64,000 bases of DNA, from positions 7,409 through 71,408 of the forward strand of contig JAGORL010000004.1 in assembly GCA_018062825.1 (NCBI GenBank). The letters are read 5' to 3'. This document shows positions 4,682-62,134 of this stretch, piece by piece; positions within the stretch are counted from its first letter, which is position 1, and each line of letters opens with the position of its first letter. This DNA is from Patescibacteria group bacterium (lineage in GTDB: Bacteria; Patescibacteriota; Patescibacteriia; UBA9934). Below the pieces are notes generated by a model. The model ran no database searches. It was not told the origin of the DNA and saw nothing but the letters and a program-made list of their open reading frames with translations. A program made the position numbers and the translations under genes.

Positions 4682-4719
4682 GGTGCCTCCTTTGCCCCAT
4701 CACGGGGCACTCGTGGCGA

Positions 4720-4748: not shown

Positions 4749-4760
4749 TCAAAAACAGCC

Positions 4761-4838
4761 AATATTAGCGAAAAGCACAAATTAAATAGCAAATATTTGT
4801 TATCCACACAAGCCGCAAATATTAGCGAAAAAAGGCGT
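4761..4838 (-). repeat. two orphan partial copies of the promoter module (T-tract plus GCTAATATT -10 part, no good -35)
   Basis: Plus strand 4761-4775 aatattagcgaaaag and 4818-4838 aaatattagcgaaaaaaggcg. Their reverse complements, cttttcgctaatatt and cgccttttttcgctaatattt, match the TTTTTTCTGCTAATAT core of modules A and E. Confidence 0.45.
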
Positions 4839-4869
4839 AAAATAGAGACAGTATTCTTCAACGAAACCT

Positions 4870-6600: not shown

Positions 6601-6609
6601 ACCTCACCT

Positions 6610-27511: not shown

Positions 27512-27514
27512 GCT

Positions 27515-28174: not shown

Positions 28175-29275
28175 ATGAACGCCACAGTAATTCCAAAATG
28201 GATCTTAATCGCAGTCGCCATAAGCGGCTTAACCCTTGGAATTACCCAAAACGTCGCTCATGCCCAAGATGCCGCCACAGTCACTGCAAACGTTCGAGAA
28301 ATGGTCGTGCCGGATAACAGCCGAATCCCAATACTAAACGTTCCGATTCCAGGACTTGATCTTTCAGGCGCAGTCACAATCGATGTTGCCGGCGGTAGCG
28401 TCAAAAGTAACATGTTGGGACTCTATATCAACGCTATCTACGGCTGGCTCATTACCGCAGCCTCGGTCATGGCTGTTGTCATGATGATGATTGCAGGTCT
28501 GCAGTACGCAACCGCACGCGGCAACGCCGGTCAAGTAAGTGACGCCAAGGATCGAATGAAAAATGTCGTCATCGGCATGATCATGCTGCTGGGCGCGAAC
28601 ACCATCGCCACTTTTCTCGATCCAAATCTAACGATCTTTGAACCATTATCCGTACAACGAGTCTCGGGTTACGACGTTCCAAACGAAACGCCTACCACCT
28701 TTAATCAAAACTACAGCTCAACCGCCGCTGAAGGCCTCATTTCAATTCCTTTAAAAAGCCAAAAAGACTACGTCAACGTTCCTTACGGACCGGGACGATG
28801 CCGAACCGTTGATTCTGGCAACATTAAATCAAGCGGCTGCGGCGTCGTATCGTTTAGCATGGTCGCAGAAGCGCTCTCCGGCCAAAGCGTGAATCCACCA
28901 GACGTCGCTGAATCATTCTACGTTGAGGGCTTCAGACCACTAGACAGTAACGGCTGCGGACACAACGGAACCATGCGCTCCGCCTTTACCGGATCATCGC
29001 TTGTAAAACAATACGGTATTAAAAGCCGAGACATTCCAATTGGCAATCAACAAGAGATCGTTGATTTACTCGAGCAAGGCAAGGTGCTCATCTTGCTCTA
29101 CAAAACTGATTCAGGTGGTGGACACTACGTCGTCATGTCGGGTATAGATACAAATGGTGAGGCTATCATTAGCGATCCATGGGGCGGTGTTCGCTACACG
29201 CGTTCATTCCAATGGATATTTAGCCGCATCAAACACACTACCTATCTTGATACCGAGGCGAATTTCATACAATAG
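28175..29275 (+). CDS. secreted/membrane protein: VirB2/TrbC pilin-like two-helix hydrophobic hairpin fused to a C39-like papain-fold cysteine peptidase domain
   Basis: Signal peptide (..NVAHA-QD), hydrophobic helix / charged loop ARGNAGQVSDAKDRMK / hydrophobic helix. The C-terminal domain has a Cys motif SGCGVVSFSMV and a His motif GGGHYVVMSG..DPWGG. Confidence 0.5.
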   Translation: MNATVIPKWILIAVAISGLTLGITQNVAHAQDAATVTANVREMVVPDNSRIPILNVPIPGLDLSGAVTIDVAGGSVKSNMLGLYINAIYGWLITAASVMAVVMMMIAGLQYATARGNAGQVSDAKDRMKNVVIGMIMLLGANTIATFLDPNLTIFEPLSVQRVSGYDVPNETPTTFNQNYSSTAAEGLISIPLKSQKDYVNVPYGPGRCRTVDSGNIKSSGCGVVSFSMVAEALSGQSVNPPDVAESFYVEGFRPLDSNGCGHNGTMRSAFTGSSLVKQYGIKSRDIPIGNQQEIVDLLEQGKVLILLYKTDSGGGHYVVMSGIDTNGEAIISDPWGGVRYTRSFQWIFSRIKHTTYLDTEANFIQ

Positions 29276-29279: not shown

Positions 29280-30569
29280 ATGTTCTCGTGCCAAAAGTGT
29301 GATTCCCAGTATCCAAAATGGACCGGTCGCTGCACAAGCTGCGGAGCCTGGGGAACAATTGCAGAGGAGGACGGCGCCCAAGCGCCGTCTTTGCGTTCGT
29401 CAAAATCTGGAAAGAAAGCAAAAGCCGCGCCAGTACTTGATCTAGGTAGCGCCGCAGAAAAACCTATCGCACAAAATCCCACTGGTTTATCAGAGGTTGA
29501 TCGCGTTCTAGGTGGCGGGATTGTTCCAGGATCAGTCACGCTCTTAGCCGGCGAACCTGGAATAGGTAAATCAACACTCGTCGCCATGCTCTGCGGAGCA
29601 CTAGCAAAAAATGGCGCCAATGCCTATTACGCTTCTGGTGAAGAATCAGAAGGGCAAGTTCGCCTGCGCTTCAAACGCCTAAGTATCGATCCAGCAAAAA
29701 TCGCCTTCTCAAATGCGGTAGACGCCGAAGCAATCATCGCAGCCGCGGAATCAATCTCCCCCACGCTTCTTGTTGTCGATTCTATTCAAACCCTCTTTGT
29801 TGAAGCCGCTGATGCCCTTCCCGGAACACCAAATGCCGTCCGCGCCGCCACAAGTACGCTTATTGGGTACGCCAAGCGAACTGGAGTGCCAGTACTTATC
29901 ATTGGACAAGTCACCAAAGACGGTAACGTTGCTGGTCCAAAAACGCTTGAGCACCTCGTAGATACCGTTCTTACCCTAGAAGGCGATCCTGCCTCACCGT
30001 ACCGCCTCCTACGCGCCGCTAAACACCGCTTCGGAAGCACTGAAGAGGTTGGAGTTTTTGAAATGACTGAAGCCGGCCTCATGGCCGTTGATAACCCATC
30101 AAGCCGCTTCCTTTCAGAACGCTCGCAAAGCGCCGGAAGCGCTATCGCGTGCGTCATGGAAGGCAATCGACCTTTCCTCGTTGAAGTACAGGCGCTTGTT
30201 GATCGCAGCTTCTTGCCAGCCCCAATTCGTCGCACCTCCGGCTATGATGCCAGTCGGCTGCAGCTCATTCTCGCTATCTTAAGTAAACGCGCCGGCGTAC
30301 GCCTTGGCGATCAAGATGTCTATATTAACGTAGTTGGTGGCCTCAAGGTCAGCGAGAACGGTGCTGACCTCGCTATTGCTGCCGCCTTACTTTCCGCACA
30401 CAACGATAAACAACTTCCAGCCGACAGTGTCTATATTGGCGAACTCGGCCTTGGCGGAGAAATTCGATCCGTCCCCTTCATTGATCGCCGCATAAAAGAA
30501 GCCGAGCGCTTAGGCATGAAAACAATTCACACGCCAAAAACAGTAAGAAACATCGGAGAACTTAAATAA
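29280..30569 (+). CDS. radA: DNA repair protein RadA/Sms (ATG at 29280; track start 29154 is an extension)
   Basis: Zinc finger CQKCDSQYPKWTGRCTSCGAWGT, Walker A GEPGIGKST, KHRFG motif (RadA-specific KNRFG equivalent) and a Lon-like C-terminus. Confidence 0.9.
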   Translation: MFSCQKCDSQYPKWTGRCTSCGAWGTIAEEDGAQAPSLRSSKSGKKAKAAPVLDLGSAAEKPIAQNPTGLSEVDRVLGGGIVPGSVTLLAGEPGIGKSTLVAMLCGALAKNGANAYYASGEESEGQVRLRFKRLSIDPAKIAFSNAVDAEAIIAAAESISPTLLVVDSIQTLFVEAADALPGTPNAVRAATSTLIGYAKRTGVPVLIIGQVTKDGNVAGPKTLEHLVDTVLTLEGDPASPYRLLRAAKHRFGSTEEVGVFEMTEAGLMAVDNPSSRFLSERSQSAGSAIACVMEGNRPFLVEVQALVDRSFLPAPIRRTSGYDASRLQLILAILSKRAGVRLGDQDVYINVVGGLKVSENGADLAIAAALLSAHNDKQLPADSVYIGELGLGGEIRSVPFIDRRIKEAERLGMKTIHTPKTVRNIGELK

Positions 30570-30582
30570 AAGTTCGAAGTTT

Positions 30583-30620
30583 AAAAAGAGCACCGGCATC
30601 ACGCCGCGTGCTCTTTTTTC
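30583..30620. terminator. bidirectional terminator between radA and recG (convergent)
   Basis: aaaaAGAGCACcggcatcacgccgcGTGCTCTtttttc. Confidence 0.6.
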
Positions 30621-30655
30621 TTCCTACTCCCCACTCACTATTCCCTATCCCCTCT

Positions 30656-32731
30656 CTACTCAAAATGCACCTCCTTCACATAGCGAATAAGTCGCTCAAG
30701 AAGTTTTGGATAAGCAGTGATATCTGGACTGCGATCAAGAATCTCCTTAGCGCCATCCTTAGCCGCTGCCATAAGATCAATATCATGCATGGTGCCAAGC
30801 TTGAACTGATCAAAACCTGACTGCGAAGTGCCGAACATGCTTCCCGGGCCGCGCAACTGCAAATCTTTCTCAGCAAGATCAAAACCATCCTGAGAATCTT
30901 CAACTGCCTTCAAGCGCTCACGAGCAACCTCGCCAAGAACGCCGGATGGATGCAAGTAACAATAGCTCTGAATACCACCACGGCCAACACGTCCACGAAG
31001 CTGGTGAAGCTGCGCTAAACCGAATCGCTCAGCGCCTTCAACGTACATAACAGTTGCATTCGGCACATCAACACCTACCTCAACAACTGTTGTTGAAATA
31101 AGCATATCCGCCTTACCACTAGCAAACTCCGCCATCACGTCATCCTTCTCTTTAGTCTTCATGCGACCATGCAGCATGACAATGCGGTAACCCTTAAACG
31201 GGCCTGTCATAAACTCCTTATAAACCTCGTGCACGGAATTCACACCAAGCGCATCTGATTCTTCAATAAGTGGGCAAACCACAAACACCTGGTGCTTAGC
31301 ATCCATCTCTTCGCGCATCTTCGCATACACCGGTAACTCCCTACCCATTTCAACAATCTCAGTCTTAATCGGCTTACGACCCGCTGGATACTCATCCAAG
31401 ATCGAACGATCAAGATCTCCGTACAAAACAAGAGCAAGCGAACGAGGAATCGGCGTCGCTGTCATGGACAAAAGGTGCGGGATGCCATCAGCGTCACCCT
31501 GCTTATCCTTAAGCGCCTGACGCTGCTTCACACCAAAGCGGTGTTGTTCATCAACCACAATGAGTCCAAGACGATCAAAAAGCACATCCTCAGTCAAAAG
31601 CGCATGGGTACCAATCACCATTTGCGCGCCACCATTTTTAAGTGCACTCAAAAGCTGAGCTTTGGTAACCTCCTTACCGCCAACACGACGCTTTGTTCGT
31701 GTATACAAAGCAATCGTCAATCGCTTACCAAACAATTTCTCCAAAGACTGAGCATGCTGTTCGGCCAAAATCTCAGTTGGTGCAAGTACAGCGCTTTGCC
31801 AGCCGCTTGCCGCAGCGTTAAGCGCCACTAAAGCAGCAACCACCGTCTTTCCGCTACCAACGTCACCCTCAAGTAAACGGTTCATTGGCTCTGGCCTATC
31901 CATGTCCTTAATAATTGCCCAAATAGCTTTCTTCTGAGCTCCAGTAAGTGGAAACGGCAACTCCTCTACCGCAGTCTTCATGAGATCTTCATGAAAGGCA
32001 ACGCGCGGCGCTTTCTGCGCATTGAGTTCACGTCGATTCTTGGCGATCAAAAGCTGATGCAAGAAAAACTCATCAAACTTCAACCGGCGCATGGCGCGAT
32101 CCTTGGATTCTGTTGATGCCGGGAAATGCATCTCTTTTACCGCCTCAGGAAGACCAATGATCTCCGCGGTTGAGCGCAAAAAATCCGGCATCCACTCTTC
32201 AACTTCTTTGGCACAAACAATCGAGGCTTCCGTTACTCGGCGACGCATCTTTTGCGTAAGCGCACCGGCTAGGCGATAAATAGGCAAAATACGACCCGTG
32301 TCACGCGTTACTTTGGCGCTTCCTACAATTTCATACGCCGGATTCACAAGCGCCAAACCGTAACGATCATCAGCCTTACCTGCAAGCGACACCACCTGGC
32401 CAGGCTTAAGAACCTTGGTCAAAAAACCTTGGTGAAACCAAATGCCCTTAATAGTGCCCGTACCGTCCTCAATCATCGCCTCAGTCACCATCATGCGAGC
32501 CGACTTCTGGCTCTTCCGATTTTGAATCGCAGTAATAGTTCCTTGAATCGTCACTTTCTGACCAGATTTTACCTCTTCGATATGAACAGCATTCGAAAGA
32601 TCATCGTAACGAAAAGGGAAATCAAAAAGCGCGTCTTCCAAAGTCTCAATACCTAAACGATGAAAATCGCGCGCTTTTGCAAGTCCAACATTCGGAATCG
32701 CCGAAACCTTATCTTTGAGATGAAATCCCAT
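30656..32731 (-). CDS. recG: ATP-dependent DNA helicase RecG
   Basis: N-terminal wedge domain, helicase motifs GDVGSGKT and DEQHRFG. 691 aa. Confidence 0.95.
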   Translation of the reverse strand: MGFHLKDKVSAIPNVGLAKARDFHRLGIETLEDALFDFPFRYDDLSNAVHIEEVKSGQKVTIQGTITAIQNRKSQKSARMMVTEAMIEDGTGTIKGIWFHQGFLTKVLKPGQVVSLAGKADDRYGLALVNPAYEIVGSAKVTRDTGRILPIYRLAGALTQKMRRRVTEASIVCAKEVEEWMPDFLRSTAEIIGLPEAVKEMHFPASTESKDRAMRRLKFDEFFLHQLLIAKNRRELNAQKAPRVAFHEDLMKTAVEELPFPLTGAQKKAIWAIIKDMDRPEPMNRLLEGDVGSGKTVVAALVALNAAASGWQSAVLAPTEILAEQHAQSLEKLFGKRLTIALYTRTKRRVGGKEVTKAQLLSALKNGGAQMVIGTHALLTEDVLFDRLGLIVVDEQHRFGVKQRQALKDKQGDADGIPHLLSMTATPIPRSLALVLYGDLDRSILDEYPAGRKPIKTEIVEMGRELPVYAKMREEMDAKHQVFVVCPLIEESDALGVNSVHEVYKEFMTGPFKGYRIVMLHGRMKTKEKDDVMAEFASGKADMLISTTVVEVGVDVPNATVMYVEGAERFGLAQLHQLRGRVGRGGIQSYCYLHPSGVLGEVARERLKAVEDSQDGFDLAEKDLQLRGPGSMFGTSQSGFDQFKLGTMHDIDLMAAAKDGAKEILDRSPDITAYPKLLERLIRYVKEVHFE

Positions 32732-40234: not shown

Positions 40235-40897
40235 TCAATGGGCAGCTCCCCTGGCGTAAGTTAAAAGCAGAACCTTCGCAACGCCAGCCCGCTCCAGCGC
40301 CTCAATCGCCGCCTTTGCCGTGGCCCCAGTCGTATAAACGTCATCAATAAGCAAAACCATTTCTGGCCAAACTCCAGTGGCAACAAACGGTGTATCCCTC
40401 ATTAATTCCTTACGTTCAACGTCAGTCTTCCCCGCTAGCTGACCAACATCAACCGATCGTTGCAAACGATCCTCAAGTGGAAGAACGAGGACTTGAGCAG
40501 CGACTCGCCCGAGAACCTCAGCCTGATTAAAACCACGCTCCAGGAGCTTGCGACGGCTAAGTGGCACAGGAATAGCACAAGCCGCTAAGCTAATGTCAGA
40601 CAAAAACCAAGCTTGTGTTAATCGCTTCTGAAAAAGACGCACGAGCGCCTCGCCCGCGGCTAACTCTCCGTTATATTTATACCTAATTAATAACTTACGA
40701 ATGCCCGGATGAGCATAAGCAAAACAGCTGTAAACGCCCGGTATATCCTGCGGCGGCCAAGCATCCGCAAGAAGCGCGATCTCACAAGTCTCACACAAGG
40801 AAGCACCGACACGAGAACAAGAAACACACGTCAAAGGAAAAAGCGCGTCAAGCACAAATGTGCCAAACGCGCTTCCTAATCGATAGAGTGACTGCAT
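40235..40897 (-). CDS. comF: ComF family protein (phosphoribosyltransferase-domain competence protein)
   Basis: N-terminal Cys4 (CVSCS..CETCE) and C-terminal PRTase motif LLIDDVYTTGATAKAA. ATG at 40897 overlaps the upstream stop by 1 nt (TAATG). Confidence 0.8.
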   Translation of the reverse strand: MQSLYRLGSAFGTFVLDALFPLTCVSCSRVGASLCETCEIALLADAWPPQDIPGVYSCFAYAHPGIRKLLIRYKYNGELAAGEALVRLFQKRLTQAWFLSDISLAACAIPVPLSRRKLLERGFNQAEVLGRVAAQVLVLPLEDRLQRSVDVGQLAGKTDVERKELMRDTPFVATGVWPEMVLLIDDVYTTGATAKAAIEALERAGVAKVLLLTYARGAAH

Positions 40898-41460
40898 TAC
40901 TCGGCTAACCACACAAAGTCATCAACAAGCCAACCTGTCCCGTCAAAAAGAAGCGTAACCTCAAGCGTCTGGTAACGAACCGCAACGTTCCCAGGGCTAC
41001 CAACCGCTTCCTGGCGCTGCGTTCGAACATTGATAACCTGAGTAGTCTCAGTTGAGGAAATTTCATCAAGACCAAGAATGGTAGTGGAAATACCGTAATA
41101 ACTCTCACCAAGAACAGTTGTAGCCTTCATGTTCTCAATCTTAGCCTGAAGCTTGGCTGTGCCAAGCGCAGCAACGTCATCAAGATTGGCAAAGTCCGCC
41201 TCAGACGAATAACTACCTATACGCTCAGCAAAAGTACGGGCAATGGTTTGCGCTGAAACCGCCTGCGGCTCAGGAACCTGAGCTAACTGAGTTGGGGTAA
41301 GGGTAGTTGATGGCGTGGCCTGACTTGTTGAAGGTAAATTATTTTGTGGCGCAGTATCTGGTAAAACCGCTTGTCGACGGTTCAAAACAAGAAACAAGAT
41401 GAGCAAAATAAGCGCTATAACAACTCCCAAGGCTAGTGCAATCTCTGTTTTTCGCTGCAT
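40897..41460 (-). CDS. membrane-anchored hypothetical protein at the end of the secretion locus (possible VirB8-like bitopic component)
   Basis: 187 aa with an N-terminal TM ALALGVVIALILLILFLVL, a Pro/Thr/Gln linker and a roughly 110-aa C-terminal domain. The VirB8-like call rests on topology and position only. Confidence 0.35.
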   Translation of the reverse strand: MQRKTEIALALGVVIALILLILFLVLNRRQAVLPDTAPQNNLPSTSQATPSTTLTPTQLAQVPEPQAVSAQTIARTFAERIGSYSSEADFANLDDVAALGTAKLQAKIENMKATTVLGESYYGISTTILGLDEISSTETTQVINVRTQRQEAVGSPGNVAVRYQTLEVTLLFDGTGWLVDDFVWLAE

Positions 41461-41468
41461 AGGAAAAA

Positions 41469-43409
41469 TTAACTCTTCTTCGCTTCCCCGCCCTCTTTAC
41501 CAACATTCGACAGAGCTCGCTGATACTCTTCACGAGCACGCTCCTGCTCCAAAAGCTGCTGAGGATTGGTAGTAATAATCTGATCCTCTGTATATGAAGC
41601 CACAACCTTCAAAGCGGCATGCTTCTGACCAGCGAAGAAGATTCCCTCACCAAGCGCCGCTTCAAGTAAGAGGTACTTCTCGCTTTGCGTTAAATTGAAG
41701 GTCTTGGAAACAAGCTCAACGCCCGCTGGCGATTGCTTAAGAAGAATCTGCATGGACGAGTTAGTCACAATCGCCTGCCCGTACTGCGATGTCAAAAAGT
41801 CATTAACGTCTTGAGTAATGGTGGTAACACCAAGATAGTACTTACGCGCACGCTTCACAAGCGCAAAGATAAACTTGGCTGAATCCTCATTTTGCATGAG
41901 CCACCAAGCCTCATCAATAACCAAAATACGCTTCTTACGCTCAGAACGAACGACATTCCAGATATAGTTAACGATCGTATAGATCGCCATTGGTCGTAAT
42001 TCATCTTCAAGGTCACGTACTGAAAAAATAACCAGCTGATTGCGCATCTCAACGGTGGTCGGCGAGTTCAACAATCCCGAGAACGTTCCAGTAACAAATT
42101 TCTGCAAACGAGCAACAAGATTGTCAGCCCCATCCATGCCCTCCAAAACATCCAAAAGATCGTTCAAGATTGGATAGTCAGTAATGCTCGAAAGGTTTGG
42201 CAAGTCCGGCGTAATATCTTTCTTAGCATACGCCTCAAGAAGCGCTCGATCCAAAATACTATCTTCTTCAGGTGTAAAACCAAGCGTTCCCTTTTCGCCC
42301 ATCGGCTTACCGATCATGATACGCAGCAATCCCTTCAGGGTAATAACCGCGCTACGTAAAATATCTTCAACCGATGACTCTTCACCCTTTGGTCGAGGCA
42401 GATCAAACGGATTCACCTTAGCCTCAGAAGCCAAAGAGACGTTAATAAACGTGCCACCGACCGCATCAGCCAGCTGGCGATACTCCATTTCCGGGTCGAT
42501 CGCGATGACATCCGTACCCATCATCATGGAACGCAGAATCTCAAGCTTGATGGTGTAACTCTTACCAGCACCGGAAGTAGCAAAAATAACTGAATTCGCA
42601 TTCTGCAAAGAAAAGCGATCAAACAAGATAAGCGAATTATTATGACGGTTGATGCCGTACAAAATACCGTTATCACTCGTAACATCACTTGAAGTAAATG
42701 GAAACGACGACGCAATCGGCGACGTGTTCATGTTAAACGAGATGAGAAGCTCGTCGTTGCAAAGTGGCAGCGTAGAGTTAAAACCCTGCTCTGTCTGATA
42801 AAAACCACGCTTCGTGTAAATAAGCTTCGTCGCAAAAATCGACTCAATCTCCTCTGTGCGTTTATCAAGCTGTTCTTTGCTGGTAGCGTACAGCGTGACG
42901 TAAAAACAAAATTGAAAGAAATGCTCAATACCTTGAGTAAGATCGTCACGCAATTGTTCAACATCGCGAAGCGCCGTTTCCCGAATCGGATCACGCGGTT
43001 TACCGGATTCATTATCGGAAATGATCTGCGCCTCTAAAATACCGGTCTTATCACGTAGCTGTTTCAAAATAACTTCCGATTTAATCGGATAAAAGAACAT
43101 GCCGATATCAATCGTTCCTTTAAAGTTGATAATTGGCGACCCCCAACCGATGCCCACATATCGAGGATACGTCGTAACAAAAAGCGTACGAGCAAAGCGA
43201 TCATTAAGCTTCAAGAACGTTGGATCAACCGCAAAAGATGATGGCGCAATCAAATCACGAACCGAAACCGTACCGCGACGATAAACGCGCTCTTCTTCAA
43301 GCGTTGCCCGCTCCTGGATCTTCTTCTGATCCTGAGTAGACATGGGACGTGCCTTCATGGCATCACGCGCCGACTGCTGTTTCTTGAGGTCTTCAATGTT
43401 AAATGCCAT
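41469..43409 (-). CDS. VirB4/TrbE-family type IV secretion ATPase, C-terminal two-thirds (ATG at 43409; track TTG start 43430)
   Basis: Conserved VirB4 middle region ..RDLIAPSSFAVDPTFLKLNDRFARTLFVTTYP.., Walker A SGAGKSYT and Walker B-region ILVIDEAWWL. Confidence 0.85.
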   Translation of the reverse strand: MAFNIEDLKKQQSARDAMKARPMSTQDQKKIQERATLEEERVYRRGTVSVRDLIAPSSFAVDPTFLKLNDRFARTLFVTTYPRYVGIGWGSPIINFKGTIDIGMFFYPIKSEVILKQLRDKTGILEAQIISDNESGKPRDPIRETALRDVEQLRDDLTQGIEHFFQFCFYVTLYATSKEQLDKRTEEIESIFATKLIYTKRGFYQTEQGFNSTLPLCNDELLISFNMNTSPIASSFPFTSSDVTSDNGILYGINRHNNSLILFDRFSLQNANSVIFATSGAGKSYTIKLEILRSMMMGTDVIAIDPEMEYRQLADAVGGTFINVSLASEAKVNPFDLPRPKGEESSVEDILRSAVITLKGLLRIMIGKPMGEKGTLGFTPEEDSILDRALLEAYAKKDITPDLPNLSSITDYPILNDLLDVLEGMDGADNLVARLQKFVTGTFSGLLNSPTTVEMRNQLVIFSVRDLEDELRPMAIYTIVNYIWNVVRSERKKRILVIDEAWWLMQNEDSAKFIFALVKRARKYYLGVTTITQDVNDFLTSQYGQAIVTNSSMQILLKQSPAGVELVSKTFNLTQSEKYLLLEAALGEGIFFAGQKHAALKVVASYTEDQIITTNPQQLLEQERAREEYQRALSNVGKEGGEAKKS

Positions 43410-43413
43410 ACGC

Positions 43414-52434: not shown

Positions 52435-55400
52435 CTACTCACGCGAAACCGTAATCACGCCATCGTAATACACCCAAGGAGAAATGATCCCATCGTAGTC
52501 TGAATATTCATCGTAAGAACATTCAGCGGTAGAATCCGAAGGACTTAATAAGCTATTTCCACCACCATCAAAACATCCCTCTCGCCCATCGAGACCTGGA
52601 TCGCAACTACCCGTACACCATCCCCAGTTATCACGCACGTGAACTCGAGGCTGGAAGGTACACTGCGCATCAAGACCAGGATTTGTCACACATGGGCTAG
52701 CGTCCAAGATACCGTCACCGTCATCATCTGAACAAACCGGCGCAGTCTGAATGATGTCAGACGTACAGGTATAGATGTGATTGTACGATAGATAGTTTGG
52801 ATCACAGCTCTCATCAGTGAGGCCCCATTCGCTAGCAAGGTCACAGCGGCTAACGGTTGTATTGTTCTGCAAACCACGGTGGTTCTTGTAGAAGTTGTCA
52901 TCGGCATCCGAACCGCTTTCAATGCCATCACCCCAATCAATGATAATACGACGAAGTGGCAATTGATTCTTATCTGCTGCCGCATAGAACTTCAGGTTGG
53001 CGCGGTAGAACTTGATAGCCGAGATATTTCCGCCATCCTGGGTATTGATGGTAAAGGCATTCTCTTGATTCTCAGCACACTCCGTACCAGAACAGTTGTT
53101 CATGTCGAGTGACCAGATCTTGGGAGGAACACCTGAAGTACCACGAATGTCCCAGTCGAGCCCAACATCTGAAGGCTCCTCAACACCATCCTCATAGGAA
53201 CCAAGCGCCTCACCTCCAATGTCGCTTACGGTGAAGTTCGTATCACCGATAACCCAGCTAATTAATCCGGCCGGCTTAGCAAAAAGCTGCTGCAAACGAC
53301 CAATGATATCAGATGCATCTTCCGAGGTAGCCACATCTTCAGAGAATGAACCGAGTGAGTCCCAGGCAAGGAATGGCTTAGCCTGCGAAGACCCTGCACT
53401 GGCGAAAGCTGGCTCAAAATCACCACCCCAGAACGAACAATCTTCTGGGTTGTCAGCATCAGGTACTGGCAACAGGGCTCTCGTTTGAGGTGTGGAATTT
53501 GGATTTGCACATGCTGGAATGACAGCCGGTGTTGGATCTTCCAGATCATTGAATCCACTATTTAAGGTCGGGACAGTAATAGTGCCAGCCCACGGAGTAT
53601 TAATCGTTGCATACTCGTAAACATAGTCGCCAACGGTAATTTGCGATAACGAAGTGCTTTCAGGGTTCAAGACCCGATCTGTCCAAGCATAATTCTGCAC
53701 ATCCGCAACATCAGCCGAGCTACCGAGAATTAAATTCTCACAGGCAGGGTATGTTTCCCAATCCGGTCGCTGCACCGAAGATATATGGAAATCATCACCA
53801 TTAGGATCAAAGCCCTCATTAGAGCCACCATCAGCTAAATCTATAGCCATCGGCCAGGCAAAGAACCCGAGTTCATCCTCAACTACAGAAGAGCCGTAAT
53901 ACGTACAATCTAGATAATTATCCATCAAGATTTGAGCATTATCGTAACCAGCTTCATCTGAAGCAGAAAGGAAGAAATACTCAGTGCGTTCCTCAAAAAG
54001 ACCATTACCAGACGTGACGGAAAAACCAAGATCTTCTTCAGACGGCGTTTCACAAGCGTCCCCATTAGCATGAAACGAATTGTACGGAACACAAACGTAA
54101 GGACAAGCATTAACGGCATCCGTACAAGCTTCAGCGAATGAATTTGTATCCGTACCACCGTTATTCTTAGCTCGTCCACCCACTGCCCAGAATCCCTCAG
54201 GGCATGAAATAGTATGACGACAGTCATCCGATCTCTCAGTATTGATGCTTGCAGGCCTACTCGGAGCATTTAACGGATCTTCGCCGAGACTTTCAGCACA
54301 CGCCGTATAGGAATCAATATTGGCATAACCCCGAATCTCACCACAGTAGTTCAAATCACTAGCAACACCAGCGGTGGTGTACTTAGCAAACAAGTTCGTC
54401 TGACCAGCTAGCTGATCAACCGGTAGCCAAGTAACACAAGCCTGCTCATCACGATCACCATTTATATTGATTGCGCTATCACGCTCCAAACAGTAACCAG
54501 TGATGCCGTACAAATCATCAGCCCGAACAACTGGCTGACAAACGCCACCGCCTGTCTCACAATCACCTTCAGAAATAGCGCTCGAATCCGTAGAGCCAAA
54601 TGAACAGTAAACGTTATCAAACTCACCACCGGAACAAAGACCGATATTTGAGTCAGGGAAACGAGACTCAGTTGAGTAATAACGACTATCCCCTCCCTGC
54701 TGTCCATAACTGACCTTAGTGTAGGAACACAGACATTCCTCACCAGGCGCACACGTATTCACCTGATCAAAACCAGCACGCGTGCTGTACACCGTAGCAT
54801 CAAGGGTTTCGTTATCAATCTCCTCAATAGTGTTCTTAGCCTCTGGATCGTACCAACGCTCAACAACATCAGTAGAGAATGGACTTGTCTTCTCAGGATA
54901 GAGTCGGCACTCAGCAGCCTCAGCAGTTGCGGTATCAAAGGTATTACCATCTGGAGTCAACAAACAACGCTCGTTCAAACAAGTTCCAACCTTGAGCTGA
55001 ATATCTTCAATGAATGATTCGCCAGAACCACAGGAGAGTGTTGGATTGCTTGGTACAAAACTTTCAACCGTCACCGTAGCGCCCGGAGTAGCACATGAAC
55101 CAGCTAAACAGATATCACCCTCGTCACAATCAGCATCAGCGGCACAGAAGTCTGCGGTATCAATGTCGTAACAACCTCCAACAACGCACGTATCCCCTGA
55201 TCCACAGGATGCAGAAGAAGAACAAGCAGCGCCGCTCGTCTCACACACACCAACGCTACAGCTTTCACCAAAGTAGAAACCGTCATTCTCTTCACAGCTA
55301 CCGGCATCAAGCGCTAAACGATAGTCCGGCTTAATGCCTTCAGGAGCACAGTGATTATTCGATGACCCTGCGAATGTTCCAGTGATACCACAATCCGAAT

Positions 55401-58400
55401 CAACTATACACGTGTCACCCTGATTATCATTAAAGACCGTTTGCGTAATATCACCATTAGCAAGCGCTGCTCGCAAATCACACGTCAAAGGCTCTGGGGC
55501 AATATTCGCCTGGGTAAGCGCCTGTACTGGGTACAGGTCAGGAATCGCCATACCAGAATATTCATCGCCGTACCAAGAAACATCACGAGAGGTGTAGCGC
55601 TCTACATCAAGAACGATTTCTGGATCTTCAAAGTTCCAATCATCACAGAATGAAGCGTCACCAAGTGCCGTGTAACCACTACACAATTCAACATCAGAAC
55701 ACACCGTCTTGAATGTTGCGGAGTTCTCATCCCAAACGGTTTCGTAGTTTGCACAAGTTAACCACTCAGAACACTGACGATCACGGTTCACCTTCAAAAG
55801 CGTATTTGTATCGTTTTCAAGGCGATCAACCGGAGCATTCTGAACTCCAAGAGCCGGCGGCGTAACTCGAATCTCAGTCGTACAATCGTACGCCTTAATC
55901 ATTTCACCTGTTTCACTCTCAAGTGGTGAACAGTCACTCACCGAGTAACAAGACGTACCAAGAATCGCTACATCAGAAGCCTCGGTATAAAGACCGCTAT
56001 TACCAGCAGATGTTTCCTGGCTCATCTTCGCAACACGTCCAACGCCATCGGTAATATCAAGCACCTGACCTCGGTCGTACACACAGCGCTGAGCACAAAG
56101 GTCGATCGTTTCCCCACCAACTGTTACCACCTGGGTATTAGAAGCATCACAGTTAATTGGATCAACAAGGGAGTACGGCGCCTGACCAAAGATGACATCC
56201 GCATTCTTGCTTGCCGCCTCGGTGGCAGAAGCGTTGTACAAACGTGAAGACGTACCAGTGTCTAAGAACAAGGCACAGCCCTCCTTCAAAGAGGCTTGAC
56301 CATCGCAACGCTGGCTCGCTGGCAACACGTTCTCATCAAGATTGTCGTTATTCAAGAAAACGTAACTCTCACCATCAGCGTCTGAATACACCTCGTCAGA
56401 ATCAACATCTAATGGATCAAAGTACTCTGTACAGGTGCTGTACTCAGGCTCACACATACCTGCCCAGCCACCAAACTGAGCATCACCATTGCGCCACAAA
56501 CCGGACAATTCCCCGCCTACTAAGTAAGAGGGATCCTGGGTGTTACATGTATCAGCCGCGCCACCCGTACAATCCGCGGTTGAAGAACAGGCATTGCCGC
56601 CAATAGTACATGTGCCGTAACAGAATGAATCAGAACCTTCACGGAACCAACCATCATACGAACTACCAAGAATAGTGACGTCCGTACGGTACTCACAACG
56701 CTGACCTAATGGATTTTTGAAATAATACGTGGTATTCGCGTCATCAGACCAAGCCTCACAGAAAAGCTCATCCTGTTCACAAAGAACCTCATCAAATGTA
56801 TCAGGATCAATCGTGCGATAAACGCTGGCAGCTCCAAGTGTGCTGTTGCGATCCTGAGAGAAAGTCGGAAGACCGATCTCGGTACAACCAGCAGCACCCG
56901 TTGCGCAAGTAACGTCATCCGTTACTACCAGGAAGGCGTCCGTATCAGCCAAAGCTACCTGAGTAGAAGAAGCAAAGGTCAGATGCGCTGTTGATCCCGT
57001 GCTAAGAAGCGAAGTGGATGTATAACCATCGTAATCAAAGGTACAGAAACTAGTACCAACACCGATCGTACACAAGTACTGACTAGTGGTGTCATAAACT
57101 GCACCATTTGATTCGTAGTAACAGGAAGTAGCGGAGGTAGCCGGCAAACCATTTAACGTATTACAACGCAAATTGTGTACCGAAGCATACGGATCCTCGC
57201 TCTCCTGCGTCATGAAAAACGCATCACAACCAACAACGTCATCGGAACAGAGCTTACTAAACGACTTCAAGTAAACCGTTTCATCCTCATGCGTGGAATA
57301 CTCCTGACAACCCAAGTAATACTGCGAGCTAGCAGCGCCCGTTGGCGACTGATCACAAATTGCTGGCGTTGACCAAGAGCCACGAATCAAAGCGAGATTG
57401 TCCTCACCCTCACGAACAGTAAGGTTGTCGATATATGCGGTAGCACTTGGGTCAAAGACAAGAGCCGTACCGGTACCAAAGGCTGCAAAGTCAGCGGCAT
57501 TAAGGTTAGCGGTATCCATCGGGCCAGCGCTAATCTCAGTCCAACCATCTGTGAGCGTAAATGTTCCAAGATCAATATCAATAGCTGTTGAACCATTTGC
57601 TGGCGACAGATCAAAACCAACGCGCACGGTACCCGTACCCTTTGCTAAGAAGCTAATGGTATACGTCTTACCGGAGAACAGTTCATCACTAATCGTTCCA
57701 CAATAGGTCTCGCCCTCAGAAACCACACAAGATCCACCCAAAGGAGATGCCACGGAAGAACATCCGCCATCAGTCGTACAGGTAGAACCGGTGGAATACG
57801 TGTGGGTACGAACAACGTCAGTGAAAACCATGCTCTGACCACCGGTAGCAAGCGATTCGCTACTCAAACTTGCAAATGAAGCGGAAGATGCCTCAAAGGC
57901 ACTCACCGTTCCGTCTTCAAAATTCTCACTAAAGGCGACACGCGAGTTGCGACCACGACCACCCGTATAAGAACGACAACCGTTATCATTATCAGAACAC
58001 TCATCACTCTCCTCTGCTAGCCCAAGGTATCGGCAAGTACCAAGTACCGAATCAAAGTAACCGCCAGACGACTCACAAGAAAGTTCACGCTGTGCGCTTG
58101 TAGCTCCTGCAATATCCGTCTTGCGATAAGCCTGACAAGCTACATCAACAGAGACGGTTTTGCTCCACAATCGATAATGAATACCTCCAGCAGCATCATA
58201 AAACTCACGGCAATCTGGATTGGTGTAAATATCAGCGTTCTCGTCACACGCTGAAGTATCCCAGTCGTAAATACCGTTACCATCTAAATCGATCGCATCA
58301 GAACAGGTCACCCCGTCATCCGTAGCATTCCAGTTAGAACACGGCGCTGCTCCCGGATCTGTATCAGTGCCACCACTAGCGCCATAAGAGTAATCTGCGC

Positions 58401-61400
58401 CACTCAAGCCAGATTCAAGCAAATTCCACTCACGCAATTGGTAACCAGAGGAGTCTGAGCCCTCCCAGGTATAGAAAACCGCTCCCTGATCGCCACCAAT
58501 ATTTGCCGCTGCTTGCTCTGGAGTAACGCAAGATCGAAGGTAAGTGTAATACTCCAACTCTTCAGTCGCAAGATTGGTAAACTCAGAACAGCCAACAGCA
58601 TCTTCTGAACAGGTTTCAGCGGTTGTTGGAATGAAATAAAGCGGGAACTCCCCATCCGGTTCGTAACGAGTTGGTTCTTGCTTATACGTATCGTAACCAG
58701 AACAAATAGACGGACAAGAATCAAGCTCATTGGCAACGCCCGTGATCGTTGGATTGCCATTTGTTGGGCTATACGCCGTACAGCCAACATCATTCTCAGA
58801 ACAAACTTGCGCATACGCTACACACGCCTCAGGATCAGTTGCTGCGCCAGTACAACCTAAATAACTCGGAGCAACCTTGGCAACAACCGTATCAAGTGAC
58901 GCGCTGCTGTAACCAACGGCAAACGTCGAGGCATCTTCACCCTGCTCAACCTGCACGTCATCAATATAGAGATCACCGATAAACTGAATCTCAGCCGTTA
59001 AACGATCCGCAGGATCAGCAAGGACTGGTGCGGTAAAGGTACAAGAAAACCGTTCATAACCAGTTGAGGTCGGAGAGCCACCAAAGCTGACCGTTTCATC
59101 ACCTCCACTTGCGTCATTATCAGCAAAAGAACAATTAGCGCCAGCGCTTGTTCCAGCTAGATCAATAGTAGATCCGGAATCAGAGGTAAAAACAATCGAC
59201 ATCTTAGCTGAAGCACTACCAGTGCTCACTTTTTGACGAGCATAGAAGGATGCTGAGTAGAACGTGCCCTGAGAAAAGGTAACGCCCGGCTGATAAACAG
59301 AACCGGTCGCCGGATTAACGCCAGCCAAGCCGGAACGAGCAAAGACACCCGTCGTATCAGTAACAACCGCCGCGGAAGAAACCATCCAACCATCCGCAAC
59401 GTCATCATTATTTGCATCATCCTCTAAACCTGGATTCTTCAAGATATTCAGGCGTAAATCTGAAGAACGACGTACTAGTTCTCGGCAACCGCCATCTTCT
59501 TCATCACACTCCTCAGCAGCAGATGTAAGGTAGATGCGATCGTCATAAACCTCAGTTGTACTCTCGGTTACCGCTAAATTAGTAACGGCTGGCCAGGCAA
59601 AAGACCCATCTCCTTGAACAACTTTTTGCGTGTCATACCACAAACAACCGGCATTACCTTCAGTACAAGGACCAGGATCAACGGAGTTACGAAGTAAAGA
59701 AATATCTTCACCCTGAGAATCTTCAAGTGTTAAACACGATGCGTACTGTTCAGGGCAGGAATCGCCACGGAAACTCCAGGCATTCTCTTCTCGGACACAA
59801 TAACCAAAGCCACCGATACAATTACCGTTCTCATCCTCATAAATACAACTCGGCATGTCGACACACTCCTCAGAACGAGCATTCGTGCCACTAACCGCCA
59901 AAAGCTGACCGTTACCCTGCATGCGACACTGTGTTTCTGGATATTTCAAAACCCAAGACGGATCAATGAGCTTACACCATGGGTGGTTAGCATCACGCTC
60001 CCCTGCTGTATTACAGTCGTCAAAACCATTAACTACCTGTTGAAGAGTTGGCGCAGTGCCGCTTGTAGCACTCTCAGCAGCCAATTCCCAACCAATAGGA
60101 AGCACACGAGCCTTGCGAAGTTTTACAAGGTTAGTATGACAATAACCGTAGGTATAACAATACGGATCTTGGTTACGAGCCACATCCTGTGAGCCAATAA
60201 GCGGGAATGATCCACGCAAAAGACCCTCTTCAATCGCCTCCTCAACAGTAATCGGCACCCCAGACGCCGCGCGTGCAACAGCGGACAAAAATGACGCATC
60301 CATGACACAGTTATACAAACCGCGATTCGTTGCCGATGGACAGGCAGCAAACTCAGAAAGAATGCTAAAGTTATCAATCTGCGTAGGAGCAGCTGCTAAA
60401 AACGAGCGGTAGGAAGCACGCGCTCCGTCAGCGTTCGATGAATTGATGGAAGCAATATCACCAAATGGATCAGGGATATCCATGTCAAACTTGAAAAGAC
60501 CCTGATAAATTTTCTGAGTAAGCTCAGAAAGAAGCGTGTTGGTAAAAACGGAAGCCGTATGAATACCAACACCTAAAAGCACATCCTGATCACCAAGTGC
60601 ACTAATTGCGAAATTCTTCTTAGTTTCACCCGGCTCATTAAGCTTATTGGCAAGGTCGTCAGCTAAGATATTTGCCGGAGTCTCAACGTTACCCGTAATG
60701 ACGTTCGTAAGATCCTTAAAACCGTTATTCTTAATATGAGCAACCGTCTCGATCTTTGCCTTCTCCAAAGCGTCAGCAATGGCATCATGCTGAATAGTGA
60801 CACCAACCTGAAACTCGTTAACAGTTGGATCATACGCATTTGCCAACTGTGTCAAAATCGTACGATTCTTCAAAAGATTTCCCTCTTCACTTGAAACGTC
60901 AGCAATAAAGCTATCCCAATTTTCAACAATCTCGTTAAATTCACACTGTGGCTCAGGGCGATCAAAAACACCCTGAATACCAAACATGATGGAAAGTCCA
61001 ACGTTAAAACGAGGTGCACACAAATTAAAATCCCCAAGAACGCCACCAAAGCCAGAACTTGCCGCTAACTCTGCCTGAAGTGAACCTACAGCCTCGCCAG
61101 CAACAGCCTGAGCATAATCAGTCCAGTAGTTTCCACCATCTCGACCATCAAAAAGCGGCTCATCCGCAGGACCACCCGCAGCAATAAAAACTGCGGCGTC
61201 GTATGCCAAACGATCAAGCGCAAAAGTAACCGTGTTCATCAAAATCTGAGCAATCGCAATCGATCGAACCTGTTTAGCCGTTAGTTCCGCAGTCTCAATA
61301 GCATCCTCCAAAGCACGAGGAGCATCAGTCAAGGTATTAGCTCCTACAACAAGCTGAGCAGAAGCAATAGTTGGCAGGAAAAAGCTCGTAAAGAGCGCCA

Positions 61401-61440
61401 ATCCTATACTTGCTCGTAAAAATCGATTGATAACACCCAT
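52435..61440 (-). CDS. giant (3001 aa) secreted Cys/Asp/Gly/Thr/Ser-rich surface protein of the secretion locus
   Basis: Single uninterrupted 9-kb ORF with backbone-like composition. N-terminal signal peptide (..LPTIASA-QLVVG). Dozens of Cys and many D-x-D/G-rich segments suggest an extracellular disulfide or calcium-stabilised repeat architecture. Confidence 0.8.
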   Translation of the reverse strand: MGVINRFLRASIGLALFTSFFLPTIASAQLVVGANTLTDAPRALEDAIETAELTAKQVRSIAIAQILMNTVTFALDRLAYDAAVFIAAGGPADEPLFDGRDGGNYWTDYAQAVAGEAVGSLQAELAASSGFGGVLGDFNLCAPRFNVGLSIMFGIQGVFDRPEPQCEFNEIVENWDSFIADVSSEEGNLLKNRTILTQLANAYDPTVNEFQVGVTIQHDAIADALEKAKIETVAHIKNNGFKDLTNVITGNVETPANILADDLANKLNEPGETKKNFAISALGDQDVLLGVGIHTASVFTNTLLSELTQKIYQGLFKFDMDIPDPFGDIASINSSNADGARASYRSFLAAAPTQIDNFSILSEFAACPSATNRGLYNCVMDASFLSAVARAASGVPITVEEAIEEGLLRGSFPLIGSQDVARNQDPYCYTYGYCHTNLVKLRKARVLPIGWELAAESATSGTAPTLQQVVNGFDDCNTAGERDANHPWCKLIDPSWVLKYPETQCRMQGNGQLLAVSGTNARSEECVDMPSCIYEDENGNCIGGFGYCVREENAWSFRGDSCPEQYASCLTLEDSQGEDISLLRNSVDPGPCTEGNAGCLWYDTQKVVQGDGSFAWPAVTNLAVTESTTEVYDDRIYLTSAAEECDEEDGGCRELVRRSSDLRLNILKNPGLEDDANNDDVADGWMVSSAAVVTDTTGVFARSGLAGVNPATGSVYQPGVTFSQGTFYSASFYARQKVSTGSASAKMSIVFTSDSGSTIDLAGTSAGANCSFADNDASGGDETVSFGGSPTSTGYERFSCTFTAPVLADPADRLTAEIQFIGDLYIDDVQVEQGEDASTFAVGYSSASLDTVVAKVAPSYLGCTGAATDPEACVAYAQVCSENDVGCTAYSPTNGNPTITGVANELDSCPSICSGYDTYKQEPTRYEPDGEFPLYFIPTTAETCSEDAVGCSEFTNLATEELEYYTYLRSCVTPEQAAANIGGDQGAVFYTWEGSDSSGYQLREWNLLESGLSGADYSYGASGGTDTDPGAAPCSNWNATDDGVTCSDAIDLDGNGIYDWDTSACDENADIYTNPDCREFYDAAGGIHYRLWSKTVSVDVACQAYRKTDIAGATSAQRELSCESSGGYFDSVLGTCRYLGLAEESDECSDNDNGCRSYTGGRGRNSRVAFSENFEDGTVSAFEASSASFASLSSESLATGGQSMVFTDVVRTHTYSTGSTCTTDGGCSSVASPLGGSCVVSEGETYCGTISDELFSGKTYTISFLAKGTGTVRVGFDLSPANGSTAIDIDLGTFTLTDGWTEISAGPMDTANLNAADFAAFGTGTALVFDPSATAYIDNLTVREGEDNLALIRGSWSTPAICDQSPTGAASSQYYLGCQEYSTHEDETVYLKSFSKLCSDDVVGCDAFFMTQESEDPYASVHNLRCNTLNGLPATSATSCYYESNGAVYDTTSQYLCTIGVGTSFCTFDYDGYTSTSLLSTGSTAHLTFASSTQVALADTDAFLVVTDDVTCATGAAGCTEIGLPTFSQDRNSTLGAASVYRTIDPDTFDEVLCEQDELFCEAWSDDANTTYYFKNPLGQRCEYRTDVTILGSSYDGWFREGSDSFCYGTCTIGGNACSSTADCTGGAADTCNTQDPSYLVGGELSGLWRNGDAQFGGWAGMCEPEYSTCTEYFDPLDVDSDEVYSDADGESYVFLNNDNLDENVLPASQRCDGQASLKEGCALFLDTGTSSRLYNASATEAASKNADVIFGQAPYSLVDPINCDASNTQVVTVGGETIDLCAQRCVYDRGQVLDITDGVGRVAKMSQETSAGNSGLYTEASDVAILGTSCYSVSDCSPLESETGEMIKAYDCTTEIRVTPPALGVQNAPVDRLENDTNTLLKVNRDRQCSEWLTCANYETVWDENSATFKTVCSDVELCSGYTALGDASFCDDWNFEDPEIVLDVERYTSRDVSWYGDEYSGMAIPDLYPVQALTQANIAPEPLTCDLRAALANGDITQTVFNDNQGDTCIVDSDCGITGTFAGSSNNHCAPEGIKPDYRLALDAGSCEENDGFYFGESCSVGVCETSGAACSSSASCGSGDTCVVGGCYDIDTADFCAADADCDEGDICLAGSCATPGATVTVESFVPSNPTLSCGSGESFIEDIQLKVGTCLNERCLLTPDGNTFDTATAEAAECRLYPEKTSPFSTDVVERWYDPEAKNTIEEIDNETLDATVYSTRAGFDQVNTCAPGEECLCSYTKVSYGQQGGDSRYYSTESRFPDSNIGLCSGGEFDNVYCSFGSTDSSAISEGDCETGGGVCQPVVRADDLYGITGYCLERDSAININGDRDEQACVTWLPVDQLAGQTNLFAKYTTAGVASDLNYCGEIRGYANIDSYTACAESLGEDPLNAPSRPASINTERSDDCRHTISCPEGFWAVGGRAKNNGGTDTNSFAEACTDAVNACPYVCVPYNSFHANGDACETPSEEDLGFSVTSGNGLFEERTEYFFLSASDEAGYDNAQILMDNYLDCTYYGSSVVEDELGFFAWPMAIDLADGGSNEGFDPNGDDFHISSVQRPDWETYPACENLILGSSADVADVQNYAWTDRVLNPESTSLSQITVGDYVYEYATINTPWAGTITVPTLNSGFNDLEDPTPAVIPACANPNSTPQTRALLPVPDADNPEDCSFWGGDFEPAFASAGSSQAKPFLAWDSLGSFSEDVATSEDASDIIGRLQQLFAKPAGLISWVIGDTNFTVSDIGGEALGSYEDGVEEPSDVGLDWDIRGTSGVPPKIWSLDMNNCSGTECAENQENAFTINTQDGGNISAIKFYRANLKFYAAADKNQLPLRRIIIDWGDGIESGSDADDNFYKNHRGLQNNTTVSRCDLASEWGLTDESCDPNYLSYNHIYTCTSDIIQTAPVCSDDDGDGILDASPCVTNPGLDAQCTFQPRVHVRDNWGWCTGSCDPGLDGREGCFDGGGNSLLSPSDSTAECSYDEYSDYDGIISPWVYYDGVITVSRE

Positions 61441-61450
61441 ACAAGCTCAA

Positions 61451-62134
61451 TTATTGAGACGCTTCAGCATTCTGCGCCTGAGTTAGCGCAGTTTGGTATA
61501 ACTCTAAAATCTGTCCATCGGTTAGCTGCCCAACTTCAGCCTCACTCACCCCGAGCGCTACCAATAACTCTCGTATATCGGCAACGGTTAGAGTGGAAAG
61601 ATCAACGTCTGCTGCAGTGTCAGTAGTAACAACGCCTTCCGCTGTAAGAGCGGCTTCTAACCCCTCAGGCTCAACCGGAACCGGCACATCATCCAAGAAC
61701 GTACCTGATGCATTGGTTGGCAAAACGGCATCAGCATCTTCAACAAGATCATCAGCTACGCACACCTCACCCGGAGAACAAAGCGGATCATCCCCTGCCA
61801 AGATCTCTGTACCATCAGCAATGCCATCGCCATCTGTATCTTGAAGATATGCGGAGGTCTTGAATACAAAACGTTCATCGTAATCACTTACACCATCCTC
61901 ATCTGTATCAGCGGCGCGCAACTGCGCCATCTCTGCTGACTCTTCTTCGTCAGAAGTTTGAAAACGCGGACCGGTATACGTAACAACAAATGGCACAGCA
62001 GCGTGCTTCCACAAGTAAAAACCACCTAAAACAAGGCCACCAAGCGCACAAATAAAAACAAAACCGATACCGACTCTCTGTTCAGAGGTCAGCGGCGGTT
62101 TGCGTGCCGGAAGAATAATCCGCCCTTCATCCAT
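61451..62134 (-). CDS. membrane-anchored acidic protein with thrombospondin type-3-like calcium-binding motifs
   Basis: N-terminal TM GIGFVFICALGGLVLGGFYLW. Motifs DTDEDGVSDYDE and DTDGDGIADGTE (D-x-D-x-D-G). It lies 10 nt upstream of the giant gene. Confidence 0.5.
   Translation of the reverse strand: MDEGRIILPARKPPLTSEQRVGIGFVFICALGGLVLGGFYLWKHAAVPFVVTYTGPRFQTSDEEESAEMAQLRAADTDEDGVSDYDERFVFKTSAYLQDTDGDGIADGTEILAGDDPLCSPGEVCVADDLVEDADAVLPTNASGTFLDDVPVPVEPEGLEAALTAEGVVTTDTAADVDLSTLTVADIRELLVALGVSEAEVGQLTDGQILELYQTALTQAQNAEASQ

Follow-up and report, generated by a model that had tools for sequence, protein, structure and literature searches.

A chromosomal type IV secretion locus, probably of the Patescibacteria clade, and its giant cysteine-rich neighbour in an ABY1-class genome

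A 64,000-nucleotide stretch of the patescibacterial assembly GCA_018062825.1 (contig JAGORL010000004.1, positions 7,409 to 71,408; hereafter the window, with coordinates counted from its first letter) carries a minus-strand gene array that we read as a chromosomal, vertically inherited type IV secretion system (T4SS) of the published "Patescibacteria clade", related to the monoderm mating pair formation machinery of the MPF-FATA class, and to which we give a probability of about 0.8. The window proteins were compared by tblastn and blastp with 80 virB4-anchored loci, and the order M23 peptidase – VirB6-like protein – p575 – PrgI – TrsD – VirB4 – VirB8-like protein (p187) – comF is retained in most of them. 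TrsD was captured in 78 of these loci, PrgI in 74–75, p575 in 75, comF in 72, p187 in 68, and the VirB6-like gene in 60, while the M23 gene was found in 36–37, with most of the remaining loci ending on that side. The nearest matches to the VirB4 protein and its locus belong to Candidatus Uhrbacteria and further Patescibacteria metagenome-assembled genomes (MAGs), the best loci being 84–86% identical, and the named entries among the best 120 of 8000 scored VirB4 matches are Patescibacteria or unclassified MAGs. The source organism is an ABY1-class, Uhrbacteria-like patescibacterium and not a Saccharibacterium. Comparison with loci of the candidate phyla radiation, which a first-pass annotation made from the sequence had proposed, revealed that synteny is conserved across Uhrbacteria and Magasanikbacteria genomes. 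The locus is flanked by housekeeping genes, with ksgA and an epimerase gene upstream, and zur (a Fur/Zur-family regulator) and znu genes downstream of comF.

Families were assigned with Pfam, applied to window open reading frames (ORFs) of at least 110 residues and two shorter ones, and with NCBIfam models. The central ATPase (41469..43409, minus strand, ATG at 43409 within an ORF extending to 43430) is a short, TrsE-like VirB4 of 646 residues, which matches PF19044 (E 5e-26, 91.7 bits vs. a cutoff of 25.8), NF045971 (344.6 bits vs. 325), and the structure 4AG5 in the PDB (E 5e-48). It lacks the first ~166 positions of the NCBIfam model and aligns end to end with TrsE of pGO1 (residues 36–617), but with PrgJ of pCF10 only at residues 222–772. 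Just upstream lies a gene for a TrsD-like protein of 232 residues (43414..44112, minus strand, ATG at 44112 in a 244-residue ORF), which is the detached N-terminal part of VirB4. Among the NCBIfam models, it matches positions 2–102 of the CD1110 VirB4 (E 1e-5) and positions 85–211 of the Mbov_0397 VirB4 (E 7e-11), and the match to the TrsD model itself (E 2e-7) falls below the curated cutoff. The family profile aligns with pGO1 TrsD (hhalign probability 79%, E 1.5e-5), and 14 of 32 relatives match TraC_F_IV, the N-terminal Pfam domain of TraC. When PDB sequences were searched with the family profiles of TrsD and p187, nothing informative was returned. The first-pass annotation had listed VirB4 as two ORFs; both are real and the VirB4 assignment holds, but there is nothing abnormal about them, as by sequence they correspond to the conserved TrsD/TrsE-type pair. 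A frameshifted or broken VirB4 was considered and rejected, because the VirB4 homologs are all ~640 residues long and each is preceded by a separate ~230-residue gene. TrsD is also the most abundant T4SS component reported for Patescibacteria (Quinonero-Coronel et al. 2025, PMC12102498). Two genes upstream of virB4, a small membrane protein previously proposed to be VirB3-like (44117..44560, minus strand) proved to be a PrgI-family protein above the Pfam threshold (PF12666, E 7.4e-9, 36.5 bits vs. a cutoff of 27).

The 187-residue p187 (40897..41460, minus strand) had been described merely as a bitopic protein, and its predicted structure gives it a VirB8 fold. The AlphaFold2 model (predicted local distance difference test score 80) comprises a transmembrane helix, a disordered linker, and an NTF2-like domain in which three helices pack on a four-stranded curved sheet. 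The top Foldseek matches in the PDB are CagV, TrwG/VirB8, and PrgL (E 6e-5 to 1e-3, TM-scores 0.5–0.67), and nearly all of the best matches are VirB8 homologs, with Brucella VirB8, TraE, and TcpC also among them. The family profile additionally aligns with PrgL at an hhalign probability of 83%. On the basis of its modelled fold, we regard p187 as a VirB8-like protein. This fits the published distribution, as VirB8 homologs in Patescibacteria have been found almost only in ABY1 (PMC12102498).

The genes from the VirB6-like gene through comF form one true, tightly packed minus-strand operon. Its junctions have spacers of 4–27 nucleotides, an RBS-like (ribosome-binding-site-like) GGAGG or GAGGA precedes the starts of p575 and the VirB6-like gene, and the p187 stop codon overlaps the comF start codon in the sequence TAATG. 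The ComF-family protein (40235..40897, minus strand, ATG at 40897; TIGR00201, E 3e-20) is encoded immediately downstream of the VirB8-like gene in 72 of the 80 loci, as compared to 10 loci retaining zur and 13 retaining znuA, although both are just as near in the window. The ORFs of the array, as well as comF and the zur-znu genes downstream, all lie at or near the coordinates given in the first-pass annotation.

The first gene of the operon encodes a polytopic membrane protein of 950 residues (46337..49189, minus strand, ATG at 49189 in a 964-residue ORF), with ~8 transmembrane segments followed by a hydrophilic tail of ~600 residues. Its family is large (10,519 cluster representatives, mostly 800–1000 residues). 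Similarity to the Pfam family TrbL is confined to sub-threshold matches in three of 90 relatives (40 + 50 scanned), and the hhalign match to pGO1 TrsL (E 0.015) is not significant. Alignment by hhalign with PrgH and TrsF, a search of the family profile against the PDB, and a hidden Markov model search against all pCF10 and pGO1 ORFs likewise gave nothing significant. We therefore use the designation VirB6-like tentatively, on the grounds of topology, position, and literature. The earlier description as a VirB6-like protein with a long C-terminal extension agrees with the topology and position of the gene, but the sequence similarity to TrbL/VirB6 stays below threshold. Between this gene and that of the VirB3-like protein lies p575 (44588..46315, minus strand), a clade-specific cytoplasmic protein of 575 residues. 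Its predicted structure is all-alpha and confident in three blocks, and neither Pfam nor NCBIfam yielded a family match, nor did the predicted structure match a solved fold. The earlier label of a soluble unknown thus stands, now with an all-helical structure prediction of no recognisable fold.

Upstream of the operon, the locus includes a 543-residue M23 metallopeptidase lipoprotein with 12 cysteines (49253..50884, minus strand). The earlier assignment as a peptidase is upheld by a match to PF01551 (51 bits vs. a cutoff of 28.7) and a lipobox (LSGC). The M23 domain (residues 65–151) is followed by a C-terminal part of ~390 residues without an assigned family. The protein is probably the cell wall hydrolase of the system and a functional analogue of VirB1. 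Of the 60 relatives whose VirB6-like gene was captured as well, 36 have the M23 gene. Pairwise divergences of M23 and VirB4 are correlated (Spearman 0.75), to much the same degree as those of the VirB6-like protein (0.80) and p575 (0.81) with VirB4. As the gene is syntenic and diverges in step with VirB4, it is a vertically inherited part of the locus, and for the same reasons a recent high-GC insertion was rejected as its origin. The first-pass annotation had described the locus as interrupted by two high-GC lipoprotein genes, this one and gene E (51500..52246, plus strand). The high GC of both is correct, but the M23 gene is no interruption, and only gene E looks variable. Their G+C contents at third codon positions (GC3) are 0.64 and 0.90, respectively, compared to 0.38–0.50 in the neighbouring genes. 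In 34 of 35 relatives, GC3 is higher in the M23 gene than in the remaining T4SS genes of that locus (mean 0.67 vs. 0.49, Wilcoxon p 4e-10). This excess of ~0.18 (relatives L001–L074) is a persistent, gene-specific anomaly in a vertically inherited gene, and we hypothesize that biased gene conversion at a hot spot of recombination may be behind it.

No VirD4, relaxase, or integrase was found in the 64-kb window by Pfam or NCBIfam on its ORFs or by tblastn with pCF10 and pGO1 proteins, where PcfC, TrsK, PcfG, Nes, and MobV served as coupling protein and relaxase queries. VirB7/9/10 and VirB11 had no Pfam or NCBIfam match among the window ORFs scanned, and neither an integrase gene nor an att-like structure lies beside the locus, the nearest tRNA genes being ~5–8 kb beyond comF. 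These results agree with the earlier statement that VirD4, relaxase, and VirB9/10/11 are missing from the window, and a complete adjacent conjugative module, which would have made this an ordinary integrative and conjugative element (ICE), was not found in it. A decayed ICE, i.e., a non-functional Gram-positive remnant that had lost its relaxase, coupling protein, and integrase, would likewise show the homology of the components to MPF-FATA conjugation proteins and the lack of hallmark DNA-processing genes observed in the window. We find this origin very hard to credit, since all ORFs are intact and tightly packed, gene order and content are conserved in dozens of genomes with VirB4 proteins only 68–86% identical to this one, the accessory proteins diverge in step, and the GC content fits the genome except for the M23 gene and gene E. 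Nor do the housekeeping flanks and the lack of an adjoining integrase or att-like structure agree with it. Because of these flanks and the conserved synteny, the data support a minimal, monoderm-type chromosomal T4SS of the kind found in episymbionts and not an ICE, in line with the earlier proposal of a host-attachment rather than a conjugation system.

A second module lies upstream of the T4SS genes. It consists of a giant secreted cysteine-rich protein of 3001 residues (52435..61440, minus strand) and, 10 nucleotides upstream of its gene, p227, a bitopic protein of 227 residues (61451..62134, minus strand). The giant protein has an N-terminal signal peptide and no C-terminal anchor, and 128 of its residues (4.3%) are cysteines. 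Two CBM_4_9-like segments are weak or sub-threshold, and no PDB sequence match was obtained. It ends in a conserved cysteine-rich domain of ~200 residues (52438–53040) with the motifs KFYAAADKNQLPLRR, HVRDNWGWCTG.C, and PWVYYDG, for which no Pfam or PDB match was obtained. Scanning metagenome contigs with this domain yielded 74 loci, including 27 complete homologs of 2538–3205 residues with 93–152 cysteines, all of which have a signal peptide and align over nearly their full length. A BLAST of the giant protein against itself revealed no internal repeats, and it is an orthologous, non-repetitive protein rather than a repeat adhesin. p227 has one transmembrane segment (residues 21–39) and two thrombospondin-type-3 (TSP3, DxDxDG) calcium-binding motifs, DTDEDGVSDYDE and DTDGDGIADGTE, which were read directly in the sequence, while matches to TSP3_bac and MtsD are sub-threshold. 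The first-pass annotation had thus correctly recognized both a TSP3-like membrane protein and a giant secreted cysteine-rich protein beside the T4SS, the latter a recurrent neighbour in relatives.

p227 is encoded upstream of the giant homologs in 27 of 28 loci, often with ksgA beyond it. Where at least 8 kb of sequence downstream of the giant gene is available (17 loci), T4SS genes occur within 10 kb on that side in 12 cases. Upstream of the T4SS, and set off from it by a variable spacer, ksgA and the genes for the TSP3 and giant proteins make up a conserved block, and the giant module is a frequent, but not universal, neighbour of the T4SS. The interval between the giant and VirB6-like genes ranges from 0.7 to 9 kb with varying gene content, making it a hot spot of gene turnover. 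It contains two hairpins on the minus strand. The first, directly after the giant stop codon (52398..52431), pairs ATCCCAC with GTGGGAT across a 12-nucleotide loop, is flanked by A and T runs, and is terminator-like in both directions. The second (49219..49248), between the M23 and VirB6-like genes, has a G+C-rich stem of 13 bp and a T-rich tail and is terminator- or attenuator-like. Based on these hairpins and the layout of the junctions, p227 and the giant gene are transcribed as one unit, gene E as another, and the M23 gene as a third, all apart from the T4SS operon. The giant and TSP3 proteins might be unrelated to the T4SS and mere neighbours in a compact genome, like ksgA and the epimerase genes, an explanation that we consider quite possible, though a little less likely than not. 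It would account for a transcription unit of their own that ends in a terminator-like hairpin, the variable spacer, the equal conservation of the housekeeping gene ksgA beside the module, the remaining five of the 17 loci without a T4SS gene within 10 kb, and a signal peptide that implies Sec export independent of the T4SS. Yet the adjacency survives the turnover of the spacer down to relatives whose VirB4 proteins are 56–71% identical, the giant and VirB6-like genes are <1 kb apart in two more distant loci (L121 and L155), and every one of the neighbours is an envelope or host-contact protein.

A pilin gene, radA, and recG, not covered by the first-pass annotation, lie 9–13 kb downstream of the T4SS operon. 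The pilin gene, about 12 kb from virB4 on the plus strand (28175..29275), encodes a protein with a signal peptide, a VirB2-like T4SS pilin domain (residues 84–148; PF18895, 36.4 bits vs. a cutoff of 26.6), and a C39/C70-like cysteine peptidase (residues 191–347; PF13529, 38.8 bits vs. 24). The pilin domain recurs downstream of virB4 in 10 relatives, and this protein is probably the pilin of the T4SS. The full fusion is also found in L022 and L046, other relatives matching the pilin part only, and we found it unmentioned in the Patescibacteria T4SS literature. Directly upstream are genes for an exported protein of 410 residues with a transmembrane anchor and a DsbA-like thiol oxidoreductase (26279..28168, plus strand). 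Both co-occur with the pilin in L034, L044, L062, and L065, and the group lies 7–11 kb downstream of virB4 in relatives. The DsbA-like protein may serve the cysteines of the giant protein and the M23 lipoprotein. The recombination genes radA (plus strand) and recG (minus strand; together 29280..32731), which commonly accompany virB4 in ABY1, follow the pilin gene, and within 10 kb of virB4, 21 of the 80 loci have recG and 14 have radA.

Taken together, the gene content is analysed here as most likely specifying a pilus or channel driven by VirB4 that serves host contact and translocation rather than conjugation. The M23 lipoprotein would open the peptidoglycan, either the cell's own or that of the host, and a VirB4 hexamer docked on VirB3, VirB6, and VirB8 would power the formation of a pilus or channel, which would make contact with a host bacterium and translocate protein or nucleic acid. 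Given that no coupling protein or relaxase was found in the window, the apparatus would not export DNA for conjugation. The Sec-secreted giant protein and the TSP3 membrane protein would most likely be disulfide-stabilised, calcium-binding surface or host-contact proteins beside the T4SS and not its substrate. In the Saccharibacterium S. epibionticum, the T4SS is essential for epibiotic growth (Wang et al. 2023, PMC10633639).

The main rival explanation, which we regard as unlikely, is DNA import, with the T4SS together with ComF, RadA, and RecG taking up host or environmental DNA to supply nucleotides or genes that the organism cannot make. The translational coupling of comF to the VirB8-like gene and its far wider retention than that of zur and znuA bear on whether these T4SS import DNA, and the nearby radA and recG genes, the absence of a relaxase or coupling protein from the window, and a weak match of VirB4 to CedB (E 1e-11) are also consistent with import, as is the same co-localisation of comF, recG, and radA noted in ABY1 (PMC12102498). 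However, the CedB match spans the P-loop region only, gene adjacency is not function, and neither comEC nor comEA is present in the window. In S. epibionticum, competence depends on type IV pili, and cells deleted for comEC lose competence yet stay viable, whereas the T4SS is essential (the 2025 review PMC12857230, citing Wang 2023), indicating that this essentiality does not act through ComEC-dependent uptake.

Several points weigh against a non-conjugative host-contact T4SS of the Patescibacteria clade. Where VirD4 homologs occur in Patescibacteria, they are reported to be encoded mostly far from virB4 (PMC12102498), and VirD4 or a relaxase could lie outside the 64-kb window. The VirB6 assignment is without significant sequence support. 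The essentiality data stem from another class (Saccharimonadia), and no substrate or host is known for ABY1. Finally, there are the five giant loci with no T4SS gene within 10 kb, and the link between the giant protein and the T4SS could reflect nothing more than gene order retained in a small genome.

The first-pass annotation had suspected an undescribed variant, which does not hold, as the Patescibacteria T4SS clade is published as non-conjugative, with TrsD, PrgI, VirB6, and M23-type hydrolases and without a relaxase (PMC12102498, PMC10633639, PMC12857230). Like the locus described here, the systems of this clade (PMC12102498), among them that of S. epibionticum (SEML1_0006-0019, PMC10633639), are chromosomal, lack a relaxase or coupling protein nearby, and combine VirB4, a separate TrsD, PrgI/VirB3, a VirB2-like pilin, and a wall hydrolase of the peptidase type; their VirB6 has its putative counterpart here in the VirB6-like protein. 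The ABY1 members further share VirB8-like proteins and the proximity of comF, recG, radA, and ksgA to virB4 (PMC12102498). Our locus differs in its single pilin gene, which is fused to a C39-like peptidase and located at a distance rather than in an array within the cluster, and p575 and the block of TSP3 and giant proteins are not discussed in the papers on this clade. We found no published description of the giant protein, and the surveys of Patescibacteria T4SS do not flag it; adhesins were not detected in one of these (PMC12102498). New here are the ksgA/TSP3/giant block upstream of the T4SS and the vertical inheritance of the M23 gene despite its GC3 excess.

Among conjugative plasmids, pGO1 shares the order of VirB3-like (TrsC/PrgI), TrsD, and short VirB4 (TrsE) genes, pCF10 has a VirB8-like gene (PrgL) downstream of VirB4, and a cell wall hydrolase is another shared part. 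In contrast to these plasmids, our locus is chromosomal and vertically inherited and lacks VirD4 (TrsK/PcfC), relaxase, oriT, and LPXTG adhesins. Its hydrolase is an M23 lipoprotein instead of a CHAP or lytic transglycosylase enzyme, and its VirB6-like protein, at ~950 residues, ends in a long tail. The extended VirB6 proteins of Rickettsiales similarly join a polytopic N-terminal VirB6-type domain to a large hydrophilic C-terminal domain (PMC12857230), but there is no detectable sequence relationship, and the protein described here is encoded in a single copy in a monoderm. ComB of Helicobacter pylori and the archaeal Ced system are also derived from T4SS, lack a relaxase and coupling protein, and are genetically linked to competence and recombination functions. 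However, ComB works in a diderm cell and includes homologs of VirB7/9/10, CedA and CedB are only distantly related, and import has been shown for no patescibacterial T4SS. A more far-reaching scenario, which we rate as distinctly improbable, would unite the ABY1 T4SS, the pilin-C39 fusion, the M23 lipoprotein, the extended VirB6-like protein, and the TSP3 and giant proteins in one conserved host-contact apparatus, in which a reversed T4SS imports host DNA or nucleotides for ComF, RadA, and RecG, the giant protein is the host-recognition module, and the variable high-GC3 spacer genes are a recombination hot spot that tunes host range. If true, this apparatus would be a monoderm bacterial counterpart of ComB and Ced.

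Patescibacteria represent a large share of bacterial diversity, and their exploitation of hosts is little understood. Their T4SS is among the few machines shown to be essential, so far in one cultivated Saccharibacterium. The locus adds no new class of system, but serves as a clear-cut ABY1 representative in which the minimal set of parts is complete, among them a confidently predicted VirB8-fold protein and p575, while the giant cysteine-rich module is a lead beside the T4SS that published surveys have passed over.

Elsewhere in the window, plus-strand ORFs of 307, 510, 276, 576, and 112 residues without a Pfam match follow each other in a row (744–6948), and additional sugar-epimerase genes lie past its right edge. 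Gene E, which is convergent with the giant gene, encodes a lipoprotein of 248 residues with a GC content of 0.65 and, if translation starts at M41, a lipobox (LMGC). It has no Pfam or NCBIfam match, and weak homologs on the same relative strand were found in L001, L028, L083, L084, L100, and L107. An opposite-strand ORF of ~200–290 residues with high GC3 and barely conserved sequence often directly follows the giant gene (L101, L113, L116, L129, and L149). Isolated genes with high GC3 also occur elsewhere in the window (1712–2305, minus strand, 0.73; 3896–4726, 0.63; 13900–14502, plus strand, 0.79; genome ~0.43). One of these three genes encodes a cytosolic NT5C-type 5'-nucleotidase, showing that the GC3 anomaly is not limited to lipoproteins.

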